The position numbers were made by a program, and so were the translations under genes. The notes under the pieces are model-generated. The model was given only the letters and a program-made list of their open reading frames with translations. It ran no database searches and was not told where the DNA came from. A stretch of DNA of 19,041 nucleotides from Nanobdellota archaeon (lineage in GTDB: Archaea > Nanobdellota > Nanobdellia > Nanobdellales > Nanobdellaceae). Every line of letters starts with the position of its first letter. Position 1 is the first letter of the stretch. Positions 3,315 through 19,041 of the stretch are shown here, one piece after another. The DNA lies in assembly GCA_020697515.1 (NCBI GenBank), contig JAIXNB010000025.1, positions 1 to 19,041 on the forward strand. The letters run 5' to 3'.

Positions 3315-5516
3315 ATGGATCTTACTAAGAAAGTCTTGGAACTCATGAATAAACCAGAGCAGATAAGAAACATAGGGATTGTAGCACACATACACCATGG
3401 GAAAACAACACTAACAGATAATTTACTGGCAGGAGCAGGTATGCTCGCTGCAGACTTAGCTGGAGAGGCCATGTTTACATGGTGGCACGAAACAGAGAAA
3501 GAGAGAGAGATGACTGTGTATGGTGCAGCAGTGTCTATGGTTCATAACTACGAGAGTAGAGACTATTTAGTTAATTTAGTGGATACTCCAGGTCACGTTG
3601 AATTCTCAGGACAAGTTACAAGAGCCTGTAGAGCTATAGATGGTGCGATAGTAGTTGTAGATTTTGTAGATGGAGTAATGCCACAAACAGAATCAGTTTT
3701 AAGGACTGCTTTGAGAGAGTATGTTAAGCCTGTTTTATTCATCAATAAAACAGATAGAGCCATAACAGAACTGAAACTTCCTCCTGAGAAGATTATGGAA
3801 AGAATAGGAAAAATAGTGATAGAAGTTAATAAACTAATTGAGAAATATTCTCCACCAGAATTCAAAGATAAATGGAAGGTAAATGTAATGGACGGTTCTG
3901 TTGCATTCGGATCTGCTAAGTACCACTGGGCTCTGTCCGTACCTTACATGAAGAAATATGGTGTTTCTTTCAAAGACGTAATAAAAGTATATAAAGAAGC
4001 GGGAGAAGATAGGGAAAAATTAAAGGAGCTAGTAAGAAAGATTGCGCCAGTACATAAAGTTGTTTTAGATATGGTTGTGAGACATCTACCCTCTCCGAAA
4101 GAAGCACAGAAATATAGAATTAAGCAGATATGGAAAGGAGATTTGGAATCTCCATTAGGACAAGCAATGGTGAATTTAGATCCAAATGGTCCTGTAATGA
4201 TAAATGTTACAAATGTTATAATTGATAAGGTATCAAAGCAGGAGATCGCAACTGCAAGAATATTCTCCGGAACTCTTAAAAGAGGAGATGAGGTCTACCT
4301 GATGCGTGCTGGAAGAAAAGTGAAAGTACAACAGTTAGCAGTATGGAAGGGTATTCAAAGATTGCCTGTAGAAGAGGTAAAAGCAGGAAATATCATTGCT
4401 TTAGTTGGTATAAAAGGTCTGTATCCTGGTGAAACAATAATATCTACAAATCTGGATCCAAAGAGTGTGGAGCCATTTGAAGAGATAAGACATTGGTTAG
4501 AACCAGTAGTTACTAAATCCTTTGAACCGCAAAACCCTAATGACTTACCCAAATTAATAGAAGTATTAAAGTTAATAGAAAAAGAGGACCCTACAATAAA
4601 AGTAGAAGTGAATCAGGAAACTGGAGAGATTCTTGTATCTGGTTTGGGAGACCTGCATCTACAAATAATTGAATATAGAGTAGCTAATGATTTTGGAATA
4701 AAAATAAAAACTGGACAACCGATAGTAGTTTATAGAGAGTCCGTTGAGAAGACTTCTGAAGTAGTAGAAGGTAAATCTCCAAACAAACACAATAAATTCT
4801 ATGTTATTGTAGAACCCCTGGATCCAAAGTTCTTTAAGAAGCTTAGGGAGGCTATAAGAAATGGCGAAATTCCAGAAGGTAGAATTAAGAAAGATGATAT
4901 CTGGAAGAAACTTGTAGATCTCGGTATGGATAAAGAGGAAGCTAGGAGAGTTCAAATGGTCCATCGAGATAGCATATTTATAGATATGACTAGAGGTATT
5001 GTGTATCTACCAGAGGTCATAGAGTATGTTTTAGAAGGTTTCAAACAAGTTATGGATCAAGGACCAATAGCATGGGAGCCTTGTATAATGCTAAAAGTAA
5101 AACTAGTTGATGCTGTATTGCATGAGGATCCTATACATAGGGGTCCTGCTCAAGTAATACCTGCTGTTAAAGAGGCTATAAAGCAAGCAATATTACAAAA
5201 TCCAGTATTATACGAACCTGTACAGATAGTAAGAATTGATGTTCCACCGGATTACATAGGAGATGTTTCTTCGCTAGTTTCAGCCAGGAGAGGACAAATA
5301 TTGGATATGCAAATAGATGAAGAGAGAGGGGTGATAAAAGCAAAAATCCCAGTAGCAAATATGTTTGGATTTACAGATGAATTAAGAAGTGTTACTAACG
5401 GAAGAGGAGTATGGTTTTTAGAGGATCAAGTATTTGAAAAAGTTCCAAAAGATTTGTATGATCAGGTAGTTAGGTCTATAAGACAGAGAAAGGGTATACC
5501 AGAGGGTGTTCATTAA
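3315..5516 (+). CDS. fusA: Translation elongation factor 2 (aEF-2)
   Basis: GTPase motifs are AHIHHGKTT, DTPGHVEF and NKTDR. The archaeal EF-2 blocks PSPKEAQKYRI and GKSPNKHNKFYV are present. The diphthamide-site block HEDPIHRGPAQVIPA is present. Confidence 0.97.
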   Translation: MDLTKKVLELMNKPEQIRNIGIVAHIHHGKTTLTDNLLAGAGMLAADLAGEAMFTWWHETEKEREMTVYGAAVSMVHNYESRDYLVNLVDTPGHVEFSGQVTRACRAIDGAIVVVDFVDGVMPQTESVLRTALREYVKPVLFINKTDRAITELKLPPEKIMERIGKIVIEVNKLIEKYSPPEFKDKWKVNVMDGSVAFGSAKYHWALSVPYMKKYGVSFKDVIKVYKEAGEDREKLKELVRKIAPVHKVVLDMVVRHLPSPKEAQKYRIKQIWKGDLESPLGQAMVNLDPNGPVMINVTNVIIDKVSKQEIATARIFSGTLKRGDEVYLMRAGRKVKVQQLAVWKGIQRLPVEEVKAGNIIALVGIKGLYPGETIISTNLDPKSVEPFEEIRHWLEPVVTKSFEPQNPNDLPKLIEVLKLIEKEDPTIKVEVNQETGEILVSGLGDLHLQIIEYRVANDFGIKIKTGQPIVVYRESVEKTSEVVEGKSPNKHNKFYVIVEPLDPKFFKKLREAIRNGEIPEGRIKKDDIWKKLVDLGMDKEEARRVQMVHRDSIFIDMTRGIVYLPEVIEYVLEGFKQVMDQGPIAWEPCIMLKVKLVDAVLHEDPIHRGPAQVIPAVKEAIKQAILQNPVLYEPVQIVRIDVPPDYIGDVSSLVSARRGQILDMQIDEERGVIKAKIPVANMFGFTDELRSVTNGRGVWFLEDQVFEKVPKDLYDQVVRSIRQRKGIPEGVH

Positions 5517-11700: not shown

Positions 11701-12099
11701 ATGAAGCCAATAGAAATCCTAGTTGTCGTAATGTATTTGTCGTTTGTCTTACTACTTACAACATCACATTTTAACAACATAATTTCAGAAAGGAAAGCAA
11801 TAGTAAATTATTTAGAGAGATTCTATATAGGAAGGTTTGTTATAAAAACCCTAACAGAAAATGTTACTTTTACTTCAGGAATATGTAATTTATCTGAAAA
11901 CTTTACAAAAATATTTGATGAAGATACATATTTATCATTTTTAAGTAACAATAACATTAAAATCCCAATAAAAATCTCAGCCCAATATCTAAATGGGACA
12001 GTAATCGGTAATATAGGTGGGACTGGTAAAAATATAATAGAATTTAGGAGAGTTTGTAATTACAGAGGGCAAATGGTAATAGTAAAGGTATTAGTATGA
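11701..12099 (+). CDS. Small N-terminally membrane-anchored protein rich in N-glycosylation sequons (132 aa)
   Basis: There is a single N-terminal hydrophobic helix (ILVVVMYLSFVLLLTT). The sequons are NVT, NLS, NFT and NGT. It is the first gene of an ATGA-coupled operon. Confidence 0.6.
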   Translation: MKPIEILVVVMYLSFVLLLTTSHFNNIISERKAIVNYLERFYIGRFVIKTLTENVTFTSGICNLSENFTKIFDEDTYLSFLSNNNIKIPIKISAQYLNGTVIGNIGGTGKNIIEFRRVCNYRGQMVIVKVLV

Positions 12100-12425
12100 A
12101 CCCAATAATTGTACTAGAAATAATTATAAGTATTTTAGCAGTGGGGTATATGGTTAGCTTAGATGTTCCTATAAAGTTTGATACTAGGTATTATTTATTT
12201 GAAGACTTATATGCATCATTAATTACATTAAACTATCAAAATTATTCTAGTAAGAAAGTTTGTAACATTATAGAAAATGTAATTCCAAGAAATTATAAGT
12301 ATGTTGTATTTGAAAACGGTAATATAATTTGTGGAGAGAGTATAAAAGATTATTATTGGGGGATATCTCATTTCATAGAGTATAACAATACAATATACAA
12401 CATAACAATATTGATAACGAGATGA
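12096..12425 (+). CDS. Small N-terminally membrane-anchored protein rich in sequons (109 aa)
   Basis: It shares an ATGA overlap with the upstream ORF. The N-terminal hydrophobic helix is PIIVLEIIISILAVGYMV. The sequons are NYS, NNT and NIT. Confidence 0.6.
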   Translation: MNPIIVLEIIISILAVGYMVSLDVPIKFDTRYYLFEDLYASLITLNYQNYSSKKVCNIIENVIPRNYKYVVFENGNIICGESIKDYYWGISHFIEYNNTIYNITILITR

Positions 12426-12712
12426 GGTCTCAATTTGTGATACTTCTAACAGTCTTCATCCTATTTTCATGGTATAATGTATACAAAGCTCTAAATATTG
12501 AATATTCTGTATATGAGTCTAATATTGAAAAATACATTGCATATTCATTCTGGCACGAGATATATACAACCGATAATATAACTCTTAGAATACTTATTAA
12601 CGATACTTATTATGCATACTGTAAGGAAATTGGATTAAAATGTATATTTAATGGTACGCATGTTATAGTAAGATCCCCAACAAAATTATATGTTTTAAGA
12701 ATTAAACAATAA
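12422..12712 (+). CDS. Small N-terminally membrane-anchored protein rich in sequons (96 aa)
   Basis: It shares an ATGA overlap with the upstream ORF. The N-terminal hydrophobic helix is FVILLTVFILFSW. The sequons are NIT, NDT and NGT. Confidence 0.6.
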   Translation: MRSQFVILLTVFILFSWYNVYKALNIEYSVYESNIEKYIAYSFWHEIYTTDNITLRILINDTYYAYCKEIGLKCIFNGTHVIVRSPTKLYVLRIKQ

Positions 12713-12714
12713 AA

Positions 12715-13737
12715 TTGGTAGTAATCGCTGGAATAGATGTAGGAACAACTACCGCGATAGCACTATTGGATGAAAACAAAAGAATAGTAGACAGTATCAG
12801 TAAGAAGAATTTCTCTGAAAGAGAGATAATTAGTTATATATCAAATAAAACGCATTTGGTGTTACTTTCAACAGATAAATCTAAGATTCCTGCTAGAATT
12901 AAAAAAATAGCTGCTAGGCTAAATTTAGGTGTTTTTGCTCCTAAAAAAGACTTACCGCTAGAGTACAAGAAAAGATTTTATGCTAATAGAAAACTCAGAG
13001 AAATTCTTAAAAACATTCATGAGTTTGATGCATATATAGCGGCATATTATGCTATAGATCAAGTAAGAGATATAATAATAAAGACTAAAAAAGTAACTAA
13101 CGACATAAACAAACAGGCAACCATCCTTAGGAAATACTTTAGGAATCTCAAAAAAGAGCCAGTAACTATTTATAGAGAACTTTTCGAAAACAAAAAGAGA
13201 AACACTATAGAAAAGAACAAGGATATTAACAATAATAGAGAAATTAAAAGGAGAATTAAAGAAGAAGGTGGGCGAGCAAAATCTATTAAAATAGTAGTCA
13301 AAAGAGTATCTAAAGAAGATAGAATCATCAAGGATAGGTTATCTGAACTAACAAAACTACTTTCAAGATATATCACAGCTTTAGATATTATTTCTGAGAG
13401 TATATTAAAGAAAAAGACAGAAGAATTAATACCAAAAATATCTTATGTTGAAAAGAAAAAAATTAGCATAAAGAGAGTATTTTTGGATGATAGTAACTAT
13501 ATAGATAGAGTTTACAAATATAGAGAAATTTTTATATTGAGGGATAAGTTCGAACAAATTAAAGAAAAAATGTATTCAAAAAAAGTATATTTAGTGGATG
13601 AATATATAGATGTTATAACGTTTATAATACCAAAAAAATACGAAGAAATTGCTTTAAATGATAATAAAGAAAATATATCTGAAGTAAAAAGAAAAATAAA
13701 AGAAATAATAAGGAAATATCGATATTGTAAAATGTAA
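12715..13737 (+). CDS. DUF460/COG2433-like protein: RNase H-fold N-terminal domain plus a K/E/R-rich, coiled-coil-like region
   Basis: The TTG start lies 2 nt after the upstream stop. The N-terminal VIAGIDVGTTTAIALLDEN matches the first-strand acidic motif of RuvC/YqgF-like DUF460 proteins. The central region of residues ~150-230 is highly charged. Confidence 0.65.
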   Translation: MVVIAGIDVGTTTAIALLDENKRIVDSISKKNFSEREIISYISNKTHLVLLSTDKSKIPARIKKIAARLNLGVFAPKKDLPLEYKKRFYANRKLREILKNIHEFDAYIAAYYAIDQVRDIIIKTKKVTNDINKQATILRKYFRNLKKEPVTIYRELFENKKRNTIEKNKDINNNREIKRRIKEEGGRAKSIKIVVKRVSKEDRIIKDRLSELTKLLSRYITALDIISESILKKKTEELIPKISYVEKKKISIKRVFLDDSNYIDRVYKYREIFILRDKFEQIKEKMYSKKVYLVDEYIDVITFIIPKKYEEIALNDNKENISEVKRKIKEIIRKYRYCKM

Positions 13738-13846
13738 ACTTGTTTCTACATTAAAATAAAAGTATGGAATCCAGTTGTCTGTTATATTTAGTTTTATTAT
13801 ATCATAATTAGCAAGTAAGCAAAATAAACATATTAAGTATTAGACT

Positions 13847-13870
13847 ACCCCCTCCCCTTTCCGAGTGGAA
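13847..13870 (-). repeat. ORB-like origin recognition element, left copy (inverted)
   Basis: The plus strand reads ACCCCCTCCCCTTTCCGAGTGGAA. Its reverse complement is TTCCACTCGGAAAGGGGAGGGGGT. Confidence 0.75.
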
Positions 13871-13989
13871 GATGCAAAGTAGAGGAGAATATAGAATGTA
13901 AGGTTAGTAATGTATAAAATATTATGTATTACTATTTACTACTAGTAAATAGTAATAAAAGTTCGGAATATATACACCTGTGAAATAAT
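13871..13989. other. Candidate duplex unwinding element of oriC, including a 31-bp perfect palindrome at 13927..13957
   Basis: This is the 119-bp segment between the inverted ORB-like copies, about 25% G+C by hand count. The palindrome is TATTACTATTTACTA-C-TAGTAAATAGTAATA. Confidence 0.65.
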
Positions 13990-14014
13990 TTCCACTCGGA
14001 AGGGGGAGGGTGGT
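13990..14014 (+). repeat. ORB-like origin recognition element, right copy
   Basis: It reads TTCCACTCGGAAGGGGGAGGGTGGT. The 12-nt dyad core is identical to the left copy, and the G-string tail differs at 2 positions. Confidence 0.75.
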
Positions 14015-14151
14015 CCCGTAAAATATATATATCTTATAAATTCTGTGATTATCTACATGTTAGTAAAAATTTGAAATAACTTTTATATGTTGTGACTAGA
14101 GTAACATAAAATAGTTTATTAAAGTTACGTAAATTTTATAAATGAACTATC

Positions 14152-14159
14152 TTTATAAT
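14152..14159 (+). promoter_or_regulatory. TATA box (TTTATAAT) for orc1/cdc6
   Basis: Its centre is 25.5 nt upstream of ATG 14181. This supports ATG 14181 over the TTG at 14172 as the start. Confidence 0.5.
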
Positions 14160-14180
14160 AATATTCTCTAATTGTCATAC

Positions 14181-15413
14181 ATGCCCGAACACAAAATTAC
14201 AGAGTTTTTCAATATCTATATAGAATCATTTTTAAAAAGAAAAACAATAATCAAAAACCCTCTTTATCTATCAGATATCTGGATACCTGAACAAATAAAA
14301 CATAGAGACCGTGAGTTATCACTAATATTCCAATATATTGCACCTATAATAAAAAGATTTAAAGCCCCGAATCTTTTATTGTATGGTCCAACTGGAACTG
14401 GAAAAACATTATCTGTAAAATATTTGGGAAAACAACTTGATAATCTCTCCACAATCAAAAAACTACTTATTAAACATGTATATGTAAATTGCAGAATATA
14501 TGGGAATAAAAGCAGTTCTCTCTACTATATTCTAAGAGATATTTTATCTCAGTTAACTAAAAAAGTTATTAAAGATGGTATAAAAACTACTGATCTTATA
14601 AACGAGCTGTTTTCATATATTCAGGAAAAAGATATTTCTGTACTCATAATCTTTGATGAAATAGATTCATTAATAAAAAATACAAAGGAGGATGATTTTT
14701 TATATCTAATTACTAGAGATGATCATGTTTTAGACAGGAATAGACTGTCTTTTATAGGAATATCAAATACTTTAGATTATCTAAAAGATCTAGATGCACG
14801 CACATTGTCCTCATTAAATGCTATTAAGATAGGATTTAAACCTTATAATGCTTTACAGCTTTACGACATCCTTAAGGAGAGAGCATGCTTGGCATTTGAA
14901 GAAGGGGTAGTATCTGATGATATATTAAGGTATATAGCCGCGTGGGTTGCTCGAGAGTCTGGTGATGCTCGTAAAGCAATTAGCATCCTTAGACTTGCTG
15001 GGAATCTTGCAGACGCTGAGAGCAGTGATAGGGTAACAATGAAACATGTAGAGAGAGCTATTGAAGGGTACGATTTGGATTCTTTTATTTCAGAAGTAGA
15101 GACTTTATCAACACATCACAAGCTTATTGTATTATCAATTTTAGAAGAACAAATAAAATTAGACGATCATTCATTTGTATCTTTTACAGAAATATACGAG
15201 AGATATACACAATTATGTAGTGAATATGGTTTGAGACCTTTGAGTAAAGATAGTATTGGTAAAAAAATAAAACAGCTTGAAACTTTTTTGGGAGACTATA
15301 TGGAAGTATATATCAAAAGCTTTGGAAAGTATGGTAGAAAAAAAGTTGTTAGAATAAATCTAGATAAGGAAAAGGCCTATAAGGTGATAAAATTCCTAAG
15401 AGATAACATATGA
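14181..15413 (+). CDS. cdc6: Orc1/Cdc6 replication initiator
   Basis: Walker A is GPTGTGKT, Walker B is LIIFDEID, sensor 2 is GDARKAISILRLAG, and there is a C-terminal winged-helix region. The ORF track starts at TTG 14172. I prefer ATG 14181 (MPEHK...) on promoter spacing. Confidence 0.94.
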   Translation: MPEHKITEFFNIYIESFLKRKTIIKNPLYLSDIWIPEQIKHRDRELSLIFQYIAPIIKRFKAPNLLLYGPTGTGKTLSVKYLGKQLDNLSTIKKLLIKHVYVNCRIYGNKSSSLYYILRDILSQLTKKVIKDGIKTTDLINELFSYIQEKDISVLIIFDEIDSLIKNTKEDDFLYLITRDDHVLDRNRLSFIGISNTLDYLKDLDARTLSSLNAIKIGFKPYNALQLYDILKERACLAFEEGVVSDDILRYIAAWVARESGDARKAISILRLAGNLADAESSDRVTMKHVERAIEGYDLDSFISEVETLSTHHKLIVLSILEEQIKLDDHSFVSFTEIYERYTQLCSEYGLRPLSKDSIGKKIKQLETFLGDYMEVYIKSFGKYGRKKVVRINLDKEKAYKVIKFLRDNI

Positions 15414-17158
15414 ATGGTAAAATACTTAAAGAGTTGTGGAAAAGAGGATTTATAGTATCTGTAGATGCTATAGAGTTTTTAAAACAGATTGAATCTCAAC
15501 TAGATTTAGATACTATACTATCTAAGCTTCAAGTTGAGAATATAACAATCATTACAAAGCAAACTCTCGAAAAGATCATAAAGATAGATAAAAATCTGTC
15601 TTATAGAGATTCAACAGGCGTACAGAAAGATAAATCACAAAAAGATAACAACTTTGAAAATATTATTCATAACAAAACTAGCAAAAATAGTATCAGCAAA
15701 AATGCTAATGGATCTACTATACTAAAGTTCATACAACAGACAACAAAAATCGAAACTAAAAATAAAATTAAGATTGAAGAGAAAATATGTATCGAAATAG
15801 AAAAAAATACTAGTAATGATATAGAATCTCCTAGGGTTTATTCAAAACTAACTCAAAGTAGCTCATCAAGAGTACTTATTTGCTCTCAGAAAAAAAGATT
15901 CGTTGGAGATGAGTTTCAACTTTATGTAGATATTCTAAAAAGCTATGAGTTATCTAAACATGAAATTTCGGTAAATACTTGGGTGTCCTATTATCGGGCC
16001 CGCTTAAATAAGATCAAACATTTATTAAAAAATCACTCTGAGTTGTCTTTATTTATTTCTTTTGATCAGTTGAAAAGAGATATAGAAGAAGTATCTGTCG
16101 TAGGATTGGTTAGAGATAAAAGAATAACTTCTAAAGGTATGGTTATCACTTTGGAAGATAGTAAGGGTCTTTTAAAAGTATTCATCTCCCAAGATTTGGA
16201 AAATTTTGAAGAAGTACAGTCTGTTCCTTTAGATACTGTAGTTGGTATTAGAGGGAAATATCTGAGTTACAAAAAACTTCTAATTGCAGATTCATTTTTC
16301 TATCCGGATATCCCATTTAAGAAAGTAAAGAAAGGAGAAGATGATGTTTGGATAGCTTTTACCGGAGACTTTCAGGTTGGTAATAAAAATTTCCTTAAGA
16401 GGCCATTTGAACGTTTTATAAGATGGCTTAAGGGCGAGTACGGCTCCGAAAAAGAAAGAACTCTGGCTAGGAAGGTTGGATACCTAGTACTTACTGGGGA
16501 CCTAATAGATGGTGTGGGTATCTACCCCAACCAAGAAAAAGAACTAGAAATAGTTACCGCAGAGGAGCAGTATGCAGCTTTAGAAAGGTACTTCTTAGAG
16601 ATACCGGAATCTATACAAGTTATTACTATTCCGGGAAATCATGATGTAGTAAGATTAGCAGAACCTCAACCACCAATACCTAAAGATTTCTTTCCAGAAA
16701 CTTACGAATTAGAAAACTTTTTTTATGTATCTAATCCAGCATACGTTAAGATCCATCGATTGCTCGATATACTAATTTATCATGGATATTCTATGGATTG
16801 GTTTGTTTCTGAAGTCTCATGGATACGGGAGAGAGGAGGTTATGATAAACCAGAAGAGATAATGAAGTTTATGCTCACAATCAGACACCTCGCGCCAACT
16901 CACGGATGTAATCCCTATGTCCCATATCCTGGCCAGGATCCGCTTGTGATAGATCCTGTACCAGATATCTTTGTTACAGGTCACATTCACCGTACAGCAT
17001 ACGCTGTATACAAAGGAGTCGAGTTAATCAATGCATCATGTTTCCAAGGTATCACACAATATCAGCTAGAGCTCGGTCACAAGCCAGATCCGGGTAAAGT
17101 TGTTTTAAGGAATATTAAAACTGGTGAAGTCAAAATCCTTAATTTTCTATCATCATAA
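15410..17158 (+). CDS. dp1: DNA polymerase II (PolD) small subunit DP1
   Basis: It shares an ATGA overlap with cdc6. The N-terminal is ELWKRGFIVSVDAIEFL. The phosphoesterase motifs are GDLIDGVGIYPNQ, GNHD, YHGYS and TGHIHR, but motif I reads GDFQVG rather than the DxH form. An N/K/S-rich low-complexity linker covers about residues 58-160. Confidence 0.93.
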   Translation: MNGKILKELWKRGFIVSVDAIEFLKQIESQLDLDTILSKLQVENITIITKQTLEKIIKIDKNLSYRDSTGVQKDKSQKDNNFENIIHNKTSKNSISKNANGSTILKFIQQTTKIETKNKIKIEEKICIEIEKNTSNDIESPRVYSKLTQSSSSRVLICSQKKRFVGDEFQLYVDILKSYELSKHEISVNTWVSYYRARLNKIKHLLKNHSELSLFISFDQLKRDIEEVSVVGLVRDKRITSKGMVITLEDSKGLLKVFISQDLENFEEVQSVPLDTVVGIRGKYLSYKKLLIADSFFYPDIPFKKVKKGEDDVWIAFTGDFQVGNKNFLKRPFERFIRWLKGEYGSEKERTLARKVGYLVLTGDLIDGVGIYPNQEKELEIVTAEEQYAALERYFLEIPESIQVITIPGNHDVVRLAEPQPPIPKDFFPETYELENFFYVSNPAYVKIHRLLDILIYHGYSMDWFVSEVSWIRERGGYDKPEEIMKFMLTIRHLAPTHGCNPYVPYPGQDPLVIDPVPDIFVTGHIHRTAYAVYKGVELINASCFQGITQYQLELGHKPDPGKVVLRNIKTGEVKILNFLSS

Positions 17159-17443: not shown

Positions 17444-17716
17444 ATGGAAATCTTAAAGGAGACTGACACCGAAATGGAGATATTATTCAAAAATGAGAAG
17501 CCTACATTCTTGATGATAGTAAAAGAAGAGCTGGATAAAATGCCGGAAGTACTCATTGCTGCATGGAGGGAAGACCACCCGCTGACTAAAGATATTTATT
17601 TTTATGTAAAAACAGATGGTAGTAAAAAACCGAGAGAAGTTATCTTAGAGGCTATCCAAAGAGCTATTAAAAGAGTTGAAGACTTTAGTGATTCTTTCAA
17701 GAAAGTTTTAAAGTAA
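17444..17716 (+). CDS. rpoL: DNA-directed RNA polymerase subunit L (Rpo11)
   Basis: It is 90 aa and has the pattern MEIL..(D/E).E.EI.F.....T......EL........AAWREDHPL......YVKTDGS..P.E....AI, which is characteristic of archaeal RpoL. Confidence 0.85.
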   Translation: MEILKETDTEMEILFKNEKPTFLMIVKEELDKMPEVLIAAWREDHPLTKDIYFYVKTDGSKKPREVILEAIQRAIKRVEDFSDSFKKVLK

Positions 17717-17717
17717 A

Positions 17718-19041
17718 ATGATTTCTGAATCAAAGGTAGTTCTAGATACCTCTGTTCTTATAGATGGAATAACCTCCCGCCTGCTTGAAAAAGGCGAATT
17801 AGATGTTAAGGAAATAATAATACCTATCGCTGCTATGTCTGAACTCCAACACCAAGCAAATAAAGGCAAGGATGTCGGATTCCTTGGGTTAGAAGAGGTA
17901 AAGAGGTTGCAAAAAATATGTGAGGGTAGAAATATTACTCTGAAATTTGAAGGAAGACGCCCGACATTAGAAGAAATTCGCTTGGCAAGATCTGGATATA
18001 TTGATGCATTAATAATAGATGTCGCTAGAGAAACTAACTCCACATTATTTACATCAGATAGAGTAATGTATGATGTTGCAACAGCTTTAGGAATAAAATC
18101 ATATTTCTTTGGAAAGCAAATAGAAACCATAGAAAAACTAAAGTTTGAGGAATTCTTTGATGAGAACACTGCTTCGGTTCATATAAAAGAAGGTGTAAAA
18201 GTAAAAAGAAAGAAGGGAGGTCCAGGTAATTGGTATTTAGAAGAATTAGATATAGTCTTAAATAGACAAGATATAGAAGAAATTATTAATGAAATCTTAG
18301 AGGCTGCTAGAGTACGTACAGATGGTTTTATTGAAATAGATAGGAAAGGTAGCACAATAGTACAACTGGGAATGTATAGGACTGTTATTGTCGAACCCCC
18401 AGTTTCAGATGGGTATGAAATAACCATAGTAAAACCTTTAAAGAAATTAATATTAGATGATTATAATCTAGATCCTAAATTGTTGAGAAGACTGGAAGAA
18501 AAGGCTGAAGGTATTGTTGTTGCAGGAAGACCAGGATCAGGTAAAACAACATTTGTCCAAGCTCTTGCTGAGTGGTATTTATCAAAAGGAAAGATTGTAA
18601 AAACTATAGAATCTCCAAGAGATTTGAATGTCGTAGATGATATAACGCAGTACTCTAAAAATTTTGCATCTTCTGAAGAATTGCATGATATTCTTCTTTT
18701 AGCTCGTCCGGACTATGCAGTATTTGATGAAATGAGAGACACTCCTGATTTTGAATTATATAAAGACTTAAGATTAGCTGGGGTAGGGATGGTTGGAGTC
18801 GTTCATGCAGAGAGACCTGTAGATGCAATACAAAGATTTATATCACGAACAGAACTAGGTATGATCCCACAAATAGTAGATACTATAATATTCATTGAAA
18901 ATGGTGAGATTTCTCAAGTTTATGAGTTAGAACTAGTTGTTAAAGTCCCAACAGGCATGGTATCCGAAGATCTTGCACGGCCAGTTGTTGAAGTTAGAGA
19001 TTTTCTAACCAACGAGTTGAAATATGAAATATATACTTTCG
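17718..19041 (+). CDS. PIN-domain plus PilT-like ATPase protein (COG1855 type); the 3' end lies outside the window
   Basis: The frame is open from ATG 17718, 1 nt after the rpoL stop, to the window edge (441 codons translated by hand with no stop). The PIN N-terminus is VVLDTSVLIDG...TSDRV. Walker A is GRPGSGKTT (18525-18551) and Walker B is AVFDEMRD. It is not in the ORF track because no stop lies within the window. Confidence 0.88.
   Translation, partial: MISESKVVLDTSVLIDGITSRLLEKGELDVKEIIIPIAAMSELQHQANKGKDVGFLGLEEVKRLQKICEGRNITLKFEGRRPTLEEIRLARSGYIDALIIDVARETNSTLFTSDRVMYDVATALGIKSYFFGKQIETIEKLKFEEFFDENTASVHIKEGVKVKRKKGGPGNWYLEELDIVLNRQDIEEIINEILEAARVRTDGFIEIDRKGSTIVQLGMYRTVIVEPPVSDGYEITIVKPLKKLILDDYNLDPKLLRRLEEKAEGIVVAGRPGSGKTTFVQALAEWYLSKGKIVKTIESPRDLNVVDDITQYSKNFASSEELHDILLLARPDYAVFDEMRDTPDFELYKDLRLAGVGMVGVVHAERPVDAIQRFISRTELGMIPQIVDTIIFIENGEISQVYELELVVKVPTGMVSEDLARPVVEVRDFLTNELKYEIYTF

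Follow-up and report, generated by a model that had tools for sequence, protein, structure and literature searches.

In Archaea, replication initiators recognize origin recognition boxes (ORBs), each of which combines a dyad read by the winged-helix domain with a G-rich string read by the initiator-specific motif (ISM), and the minimal origin takes the form ORB(-)/DUE/ORB(+), i.e., two boxes of opposite orientation around a duplex-unwinding element (DUE) (Ori-Finder-Arch). Automated tools annotate origins from family-specific ORB motifs. For thermophilic nanoarchaea no described origin was found in the searchable literature, and complete nanoarchaeal genomes are simply rotated to orc1 (preprint). 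Here, we analyse a stretch of 19,041 nucleotides from a Nanobdellota archaeon (contig JAIXNB010000025.1 of assembly GCA_020697515.1; hereafter "the window"), in which the spacer upstream of the orc1/cdc6 gene carries two inverted, ORB-like boxes around AT-rich DNA. In an uncultured, thermophilic nanoarchaeon, this element probably serves as the oriC1-type origin of chromosome replication, in the form ORB(-)/DUE/ORB(+); by analogy with better known systems, Orc1 would bind the boxes, unwind the DNA and fire replication there.

Described origins with inverted boxes

The core of Sulfolobus oriC1 is a 130-bp ORB3-DUE-ORB2 unit, which in vivo depends on both ORBs and on ucm, a central motif of the DUE to which UBP binds (PMC12141716). 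In Pyrococcus the ORB sequence is CCCCCC-N10-TTCCACTGGAA, TTCC and GAA being invariant, and an inverted pair of ORBs lies upstream of cdc6-dp1 (PMC1904270). In Haloarcula hispanica oriC1m an AT-rich region is placed between two inverted, essential ORBs, the outer G-strings of which are essential as well (PMC3936714). On the side of the protein, the contact of R341 in the helix-turn-helix of Sulfolobus Orc1-1 (Sso) with a guanine is the sole base-specific one, R365 of the wing touches the backbone, G120 and L121 belong to the turn of the ISM, and recognition is mostly a matter of DNA shape and non-specific contacts (PMC3089459).

An inverted box pair upstream of orc1

The locus is composed of the following features:

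13847-13870, minus strand: left ORB-like box, TTCCACTCGGAA-AGGGGAGGGGGT; inverted-repeat arm with the exact 12-nt core, G+C island
13871-13989, no strand: AT-rich inter-box segment, candidate DUE, 24% G+C
13990-14019, plus strand: right ORB-like box, TTCCACTCGGAA-GGGGGAGGGTGG, with a conserved 3' extension; inverted-repeat arm
14181-15413, plus strand: orc1/cdc6 initiator gene, 410 aa, oriC1 type (Pfam Cdc6_lid, Cdc6_C and AAA)
15410-17158, plus strand: gene for DP1, the small subunit of PolD, overlapping the orc1 stop codon (Pfam DNA_pol_E_B and Metallophos)

The spacer upstream of orc1 extends over positions 13738-14180, i.e., 443 bp counted from the ATG at 14181, where public gene calls place the start of orc1; 5 contigs encode exactly this 410-aa product. 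It is the largest spacer in the window, as the initial annotation had stated, while the 434 bp given there would require the TTG at 14172. A repeat search retrieves from it an inverted repeat with arms of 21 nt (13850-13870 and 13990-14010), which are complementary at 20/21 positions (95%) and lie 119 nt apart. Over 24 nt (13847-13870 versus 13990-14013) there are 3 mismatches, and the 12-nt G-tails differ at 3/12 positions rather than at the 2 counted initially. The claim that 13847-13870 is the reverse complement of 13990-14014 thus describes a real repeat but not an exact one; the two ranges comprise 24 and 25 nt, and this difference in length precludes an exact match.

Read on the minus strand, the left box (13847-13870) is TTCCACTCGGAAAGGGGAGGGGGT; its core adjoins the AT-rich segment and its G-string points outward, to the left. 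The right box reads TTCCACTCGGAAGGGGGAGGGTGG on the plus strand (13990-14013), and its G-string likewise points outward, towards orc1. In both boxes the dyad TTCC-ACTC-GGAA is directly followed by the G-string, GGGGGAGGG on the right and AGGGGAGGGGG on the left. The 12-nt core TTCCACTCGGAA is identical in the two copies, as had been observed before, and with up to 2 mismatches allowed it occurs in the window at 13859-13870 (minus strand) and 13990-14001 (plus strand) only; an extra 6.4 kb from contig L001, which brings the total to 25.4 kb, adds no further copy at this threshold. At 3 mismatches 10 sites are found in the window against 11.4 expected, with neither mini-ORBs nor a cluster inside dp1.

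The boxes have a G+C content of 62-64% and are the sole 20-nt windows of the spacer with at least 55%, whereas the segment between them has 24.4%; both the singular G+C islands and the "about 25%" of the initial annotation are borne out. Chance hardly yields such a structure: when the spacer was shuffled 1000 times with its dinucleotides preserved, the best inverted repeat with no more than 1 mismatch had a mean length of 12 nt and a maximum of 18, versus 21 observed, and the best arm of a perfect palindrome a mean of 5.7 nt and a maximum of 10, versus 15 observed, so that 0/1000 shuffles reached either value.

Close strains (L001-L005, L031 and L032, and L009 relative to L008) are almost identical and offer little footprinting power. 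Among the near-identical strains the spacer has one single-nucleotide polymorphism only, T13858C, and with the C of L004, L005 and L031 all 21 positions of the arms are complementary. Against the relative with 91% Orc1 identity (L006), positions 13993-14019 of the right box are identical at 27/27 sites, as compared to 71% over the next 89 nt of the spacer. The contig of this relative ends at its position 1, inside the right box, which suggests that assemblies break at the inverted repeat of the boxes.

The spacer also contains a direct repeat, 13755-13770 (AATAAAAGTATGGAAT) and 13954-13969 (AATAAAAGTTCGGAAT), with 88% identity between copies 199 bp apart. One copy lies to the left of the left box and the other in the inter-box segment, and each ends in GGAAT, like half of a box core.

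Comparison with described origins

The invariant TTCC and GAA of the classic ORB and mini-ORB family (core TTCCAGTGGAAA) are present in both window boxes, yet members of that family have a 3-nt centre (11-bp TTCCAGTGGAA) and the window boxes one of 4 nt. The window core is the canonical 11-mer plus one base pair (TTCCGAGTGGAA versus TTCCAGTGGAA; 9/12 identical in the ungapped comparison). The canonical form TTCC-AGT-GGAA, which the initial annotation gave for comparison, agrees with the Pyrococcus ORBs (PMC1904270). Its proposal of a lineage-specific variant holds as regards the 4-nt centre, but the variant characterizes a species-level group, namely the population and L006, where the evidence is a partial right box, rather than the wider lineage; other cores are found in the 58% and 46% relatives.

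Like the window, Sulfolobus (Saccharolobus) oriC1 displays two inverted ORBs that flank an AT-rich DUE beside orc1-1, and the unit measures about 167 bp in the window versus about 130 bp for the Sulfolobus core. The window differs in that it shows two boxes and no third ORB1-like site was found in it, in its 4-nt instead of 3-nt centre, and in an Orc1 without an equivalent of R341. The Thermococcales oriC (Pyrococcus abyssi and P. furiosus) has in common with the window an inverted ORB pair, a core (TTCCAGTGGAA/TTCCACTGGAA) accompanied by a C/G-string, and the order oriC-cdc6-dp1, a likeness already pointed out initially and confirmed by Pfam assignments and the gene order in the literature. 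In contrast, the Pyrococcus ORBs are 34 bp long, with about 10 nt from the core to a G-string that abuts the core in the window, and Pyrococcus harbours numerous mini-ORBs of 13 bp as well as a second cluster within dp1, neither of which is seen here.

The polarity of the pair matches that of Haloarcula oriC1m, with a C-run on the left and a G-run on the right of the top strand and the G-strings outward; together with the dyad, and with the layout recurring in four other lineages (see below), this agrees with the initial view of ORB-like boxes inverted around AT-rich DNA. Haloarchaeal G-strings are extended, however, and an extra G-rich inverted repeat just inside the ORBs acts as an enhancer, for which the window has no equivalent. 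Aeropyrum pernix has four ORBs in two pairs. As in the window, the ORB of A. pernix oriC1 is short (22 bp, PMC1904270), and A. pernix ORC1 (2V1U) is the second-closest solved relative of the window protein, yet it possesses a canonical TLRRVS reading head, unlike the latter.

The same layout in related lineages

Among 5.8 billion sequences the closest Orc1 proteins are P0001 (91% identity), P0002 (58%) and P0003 (46%), followed by proteins of other DPANN archaea at roughly 35-39%. The order left neighbour-spacer-orc1-DP1 is kept in L007 (58%) and in L008 and L009 (46%), and the linkage of orc1 and DP1 in L007, L008 and L030. The left neighbour is a DUF460 gene in L008 and L009; in L007 the contig ends within the upstream gene, for which no hit to Pfam is on record. 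The box pairs are as follows, each box written core first and G-string last:

Window: left TTCCACTCGGAA-AGGGGAGGGGG; right TTCCACTCGGAA-GGGGGAGGG; 119 bp between
L007, Orc1 58%: left TTGTACAGTAAGAA-GGGGG; right TTCTTACAGCCGGA-GGGAGGAGGGGG; 102 bp between
L008, Orc1 46%: left TTCCACTTCATA-GGGGGTGGG; right TTCCACTTCATA-CCCCGTGTG; 124 bp between
L030, Orc1 39%: left TTCCAAAAGAAA-GGCACGGGTG; right TTCCACAGGAAATGTA-CCCCTC; 195 bp between
L033 (Aenigmarchaeota), Orc1 35%: left TTCTAAAAGAAACAAAC-GGGTTGG; right TTCTAAAGGAAATTA-GGGGGTAGG; 73 bp between

Thus, four other lineages present a C-rich box, 73-195 bp of AT-rich DNA and an oppositely oriented box upstream of orc1, and in L007, L008, L030 and L033 the boxes are the main or sole G+C islands of the spacer. 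The individual boxes vary: the L008 core TTCCACTTCATA has no GGAA half and no dyad, and the pairs of L008 and L030 are no true inverted repeats beyond the core. Complementarity of the arms is kept over the 12-13 nt core alone (13/13 in L008, 13/15 in L030, almost none in L007), which fits inverted sites of a polar DNA-binding protein and not an RNA or DNA stem or a mobile element. L008 also contains a local inverted repeat, ACGGGATATGAAG (4331-4343) with CTTCATACCCCGT (4362-4374).

An alternative is a gene for a structured non-coding RNA, in which the G+C-rich arms would pair as a long terminal helix around a hairpin. In thermophiles with AT-rich genomes, RNA genes often stand out as G+C islands, the plus strand is predicted to fold with -68.4 kcal/mol (z = -7.5), and the single mismatch of the 21-nt arms would be a G-U pair on the plus strand and is C-G in L004, L005 and L031. 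Yet the minus strand folds almost equally (z = -6.9), as the symmetry of the DNA predicts, the interior has 24% G+C while a host tRNA has 75%, no Rfam match was obtained at the gathering score or at E = 1, and no terminator was found. Given also the poor conservation of the arm helix, an RNA gene is very improbable.

No more plausible is the chance insertion, upstream of orc1, of a foldback element resembling a miniature inverted-repeat transposable element (MITE). Terminal inverted repeats of 21-24 nt around 119 bp, a size of about 168 bp, and the break of the L006 contig inside the right arm would suit such an element. The structure is single-copy in 25.4 kb, however, and no target-site duplication is visible. 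Moreover, the box pattern TTCCACTCGGAANGGGGNGG was compared with genome contigs (596 Gb), metagenome contigs and viral contigs, the first two without the source population, and no related copies emerged but only chance single matches in unrelated, G+C-rich DNA. The genome contigs gave 7 matches, all unrelated (Streptomyces, Leucobacter and others), two of which are archaeal and represent single copies inside open reading frames (ORFs); the metagenome contigs gave 12 single matches in DNA of 42-71% G+C, and the viral contigs 3 chance matches. Finally, the architecture is retained, with diverged sequences, in the same syntenic position in lineages whose Orc1 identity is as low as 35%, and this persistence across deep divergence argues for vertical inheritance.

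The initiator and its reading head

The nearest solved structures to the window Orc1 are Sso Orc1-1 (2QBY_A, 4e-57) and Ape ORC1 from A. pernix (2V1U, 2e-54), both of which were crystallised on ORB DNA. An AAA+ domain, the Cdc6 lid as well as a winged helix at the C-terminus are present (Pfam), and the glycine at the position of Sso G120 is invariant in 122/122 sequences (the top 120 homologues, the window protein and Sso). According to the alignment, Sso, Ape (TLRRVS), P0004, P0007 and P0008 have a canonical T-Q/L-R-R-V-S head; the variant heads are SKDSIG in the window, GRDSIN in P0002 and SKENIR in P0003, and these three proteins have two additional residues behind the helix. The column of R341 is occupied by D in the window, P0001 and P0002 and by E in P0003, the column of R342 by S or N. 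Basic wing residues are kept in the clade: the R365 column holds K, K, K and R (window, P0001, P0002 and P0003), and the wing reads GKYG, GKGG or GRGG versus canonical GRYG.

Arginine occupies the R341 column in 118 of the same 122 sequences, and the exceptions belong to this clade only. In a wider HMMER search of 1.84 billion cluster representatives, which yielded 153 aligned sequences (148 of the top 150 representatives plus the window, Sso and P0001-P0003), 106/153 have the arginine and 47 do not (43 with another residue, 4 with a gap). The clade amounts to two representatives at 50% identity (706 and 678 bits), followed by an outer group, P0132-P0135, with about 350 bits and related non-Arg heads. 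Judged from these alignments, the variant head is typical of the clade and no unique invention. A protein search with the winged helix only returned just a fragment from the same species, and a search with P0132 only P0132 itself and P0001.

Canonical TQRRVS heads, as in L030 and L033, go along with 3-nt-centre cores (TTCCACAGGAA and TTCTAAAGGAA), and the three lineages with variant heads have non-canonical cores. Because core and head co-vary, the sequences support, in a small sample, the notion that Orc1 reads the boxes. It has to be set against an origin whose boxes are read by another protein, while Orc1 recognizes AT-rich repeats such as TAGTAA or the shape of the DNA. The latter arrangement would accommodate the D/E and S/N at the R341 and R342 equivalents of the window protein and P0001-P0003, their 2-residue insertion and altered wing, as well as the roughly 23-fold enrichment of TAGTAA/TTACTA in the inter-box segment of the window. 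Yet this enrichment is not found in L007, L008 or L037, Orc1-1 depends mostly on shape and non-specific contacts anyway, the ISM glycine and the basic wing residues are retained, and box cores co-vary with the head across lineages. A different reader is accordingly quite improbable.

The AT-rich segment, its palindrome and a shared module

Two features stand out between the boxes:

13927-13957, no strand: perfect 31-bp palindrome with 15-nt arms around C13942 (0/2000 shuffles)
13913-13955, plus strand: inter-box module TATAAAATAT (13913-13922)-N22-24-AATAGTAA(A) (13948-13955), common to three nanoarchaeal lineages

Among 18,981 stretches of 60 nt in the window, the least stable one of the inter-box segment (from 13904) has rank 52. 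The palindrome, which is located exactly where the initial annotation had placed it, holds 4/5 of the TAGTAA/TTACTA copies of the segment; per kb these are enriched about 23-fold relative to the whole window. Its right arm contains the conserved AATAGTAA, of which the left arm is the mirror image, and the palindrome is a species-level feature that probably arose by mirror duplication of this motif. As a conserved feature it was ruled out, since it is not present in L007 and L008, and TAGTAA as a clade-wide iteron was ruled out as well, being enriched in the window only and not in L007, L008 or L037. Other DPANN lineages have unrelated, perfect inter-box palindromes: AAATATAACACTGTTATATTT in L033 (2378-2398; arm length reached by 14/2000 shuffles, p about 0.007) and TTTGGAAAAATTTTTTCCAAA in L030 (2885-2905; arm length reached by 49/2000 shuffles, p about 0.025). 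In L030, a mini-ORB-like TTCCTTTGGAA (2881-2891) overlaps the palindrome.

As single-stranded DNA the palindrome would form a hairpin of merely -9.7 kcal/mol at 37 C, and stable extrusion of a cruciform at high temperature therefore appears improbable; the more natural interpretation is a protein site with dyad symmetry. With the Sulfolobus WhiP-type repeat TACTACTACTAC the palindrome has TACTAC in common and nothing more.

The module is found in L007 at 702 and 735 (span 702-742) and in L008, inverted relative to orc1, at 4310-4301 and 4277-4270, with a start-to-start spacing of 32-34 nt. The k-mers in common exceed expectation (four 8-mers versus 0.38 and two 9-mers versus 0.06), and the flipped orientation in L008 would be the expected outcome of recombination between the inverted boxes on either side. 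The module is unrelated in sequence to Sulfolobus ucm (TTATACAAAC).

In L037, positions 360-415 hold two ATTAGTAAC units 19 bp apart, and AGTAATGTAT is shared with the inter-box segment of the window. The k-mers common to L037 and the window exceed chance by a small margin only (18/1000 shuffles at k = 8 and 91/1000 at k = 10).

A separate promoter candidate for orc1

Closer to the gene lies a further element:

14121-14143, plus strand: near-palindrome AAAGTTACGTAAATTT overlapping a TATA-like TTTTATAAAT, at a distance of 38 nt from the ATG of orc1

In L006 this promoter-candidate block is identical at 36/42 positions, which is above the flanking spacer, and forms a perfect palindrome, AAATTTGCGCAAATTT; paired substitutions (TTACGTAA to TTGCGCAA) keep the dyad. 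On sequence grounds, 14121-14143 is probably the orc1 promoter with an operator. A scan for sigma-70 promoters and terminators gave nothing above chance, archaeal promoters being outside the coverage of the tool.

The element bears on an account in which the boxes themselves are operators of orc1-dp1, bound by Orc1 or another regulator, or mark a dormant origin, while replication begins at another place or through recombination. Upstream of orc1 the boxes are found at a distance of 167-330 bp, auto-control has been suggested for initiator genes close to origins (literature), and dormant origins with ORBs are known from Haloferax mediterranei (PMC4595724); the lack of a skew signal over 25 kb fits as well. 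Yet the promoter candidate is separate, independently conserved and better placed for regulation, and an inverted pair 100-120 bp apart around AT-rich DNA has the geometry of an origin and not of an operator. Furthermore, there is no second orc1 in 25 kb, and the complete genomes of three Nanobdellota orders, this one not among them, generally have one ORC1 (preprint). We consider an operator or dormant origin unlikely.

Weighing the case for an origin

The interpretation as a chromosomal origin draws on the position of the spacer directly upstream of orc1/cdc6, inverted repeats that flank AT-rich DNA, the combination of dyad and G-string, and conservation in synteny. Several observations weigh against it. 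The GC skew across the window tracks gene orientation and shows no inflection at 13.9 kb, and the skew at third codon positions of same-strand genes reveals no replication asymmetry between left and right (plus strand 0.218 and 0.129, minus strand 0.253 and 0.148, respectively), over 25 kb that are too short to decide and are dominated by coding-strand bias. The uniqueness of the boxes refers to 25.4 kb only. The Orc1 proteins of the clade are devoid of the arginine that provides the sole base-specific contact in Sso Orc1-1. The stretch from the right box to orc1 (14019-14165) is as unstable as the inter-box segment, and therefore the unwinding site is not pinned down. In L008 (4357-4379, CCCCGTGTG) and L030 (2935-2958, CCCCTC) the orc1-proximal box has a C-run and not a G-run. 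No clear box pair is seen in L037, from the outer clade (38% Orc1 identity), and for this reason the architecture may not extend to all nanoarchaea. Finally, some archaea dispense with an origin altogether and replicate independently of one, as reported for Thermococcus (PMC5663688).

Neighbouring genes and host

The remaining genes of the window are housekeeping genes. Two of the neighbours are:

12715-13737, plus strand: DUF460 gene, the conserved left neighbour of the spacer (Pfam DUF460)
17444-17716: RpoL (Pfam)

Upstream of the DUF460 gene, three small overlapping plus-strand ORFs (132, 109 and 96 aa) without Pfam match occupy 11701-12712; together with DUF460 they constitute a block that the 46% relative likewise retains upstream of orc1 (L008, 2079-4148). 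The minus-strand ORFs called mechanically at 17708-18427 overlap a public plus-strand gene for a 609-aa PIN / T2SSE-type ATPase (window positions about 17718-19547) and are probably spurious.

The identical Orc1 (HIP66789.1) and the EF-2 are labelled at NCBI as proteins of a metagenome-assembled genome of "Candidatus Nanopusillus sp.", and the taxonomy on record is Nanobdellota, Nanoarchaeales, Nanopusillaceae. The tRNA-Leu has 75% G+C in a genome of 32%, which indicates a thermophilic host.

A model for initiation and its implications

If initiation resembles that in Sulfolobus, Aeropyrum and Haloarcula, each box would be bound with defined polarity by one monomer of the Orc1/Cdc6 that is encoded 167 bp downstream, with its winged-helix domain on the 12-nt core next to the AT-rich DNA and the ISM of its AAA+ domain on the abutting G-string at the outer side. 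The two initiators, facing in opposite directions, would bend the DNA, underwind it and bring MCM to the AT-rich segment of 119 bp; this segment would then melt, and bidirectional replication would begin. More speculatively, the module TATAAAATAT...AATAGTAA is most likely the site of an accessory dimeric or nucleoid-type protein, with a role like that of ucm/UBP in Sulfolobus.

The element as such is of an ordinary kind, and since it follows the textbook plan, its existence and position will not surprise a specialist. Its particular traits are the ORB dyad expanded by one base pair, the abutting G-string and the non-canonical reading head. The combination of an expanded dyad with an initiator that is devoid of the guanine-contacting arginine represents a small, testable case of initiator-origin co-variation. 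With the defined box pair, the profiling of replication by read depth in uncultured symbionts gains a concrete target, origin finders gain a motif and recombinant Orc1 a defined DNA substrate.

It is conceivable, if doubtful, that origin recognition in the Nanopusillus-like clade has been rewired and evolves fast, with the otherwise dominant Arg-Arg pair lost, two residues inserted, the core extended by a base pair here and altered in other ways in the 58% and 46% relatives, and the module flipped in one lineage, as recombination between the boxes would bring about. If this were true, the reduced genomes of these symbionts would offer a natural series of co-evolving initiator-origin pairs, from which one could learn how Orc1 of archaea attains specificity with almost no base contacts.

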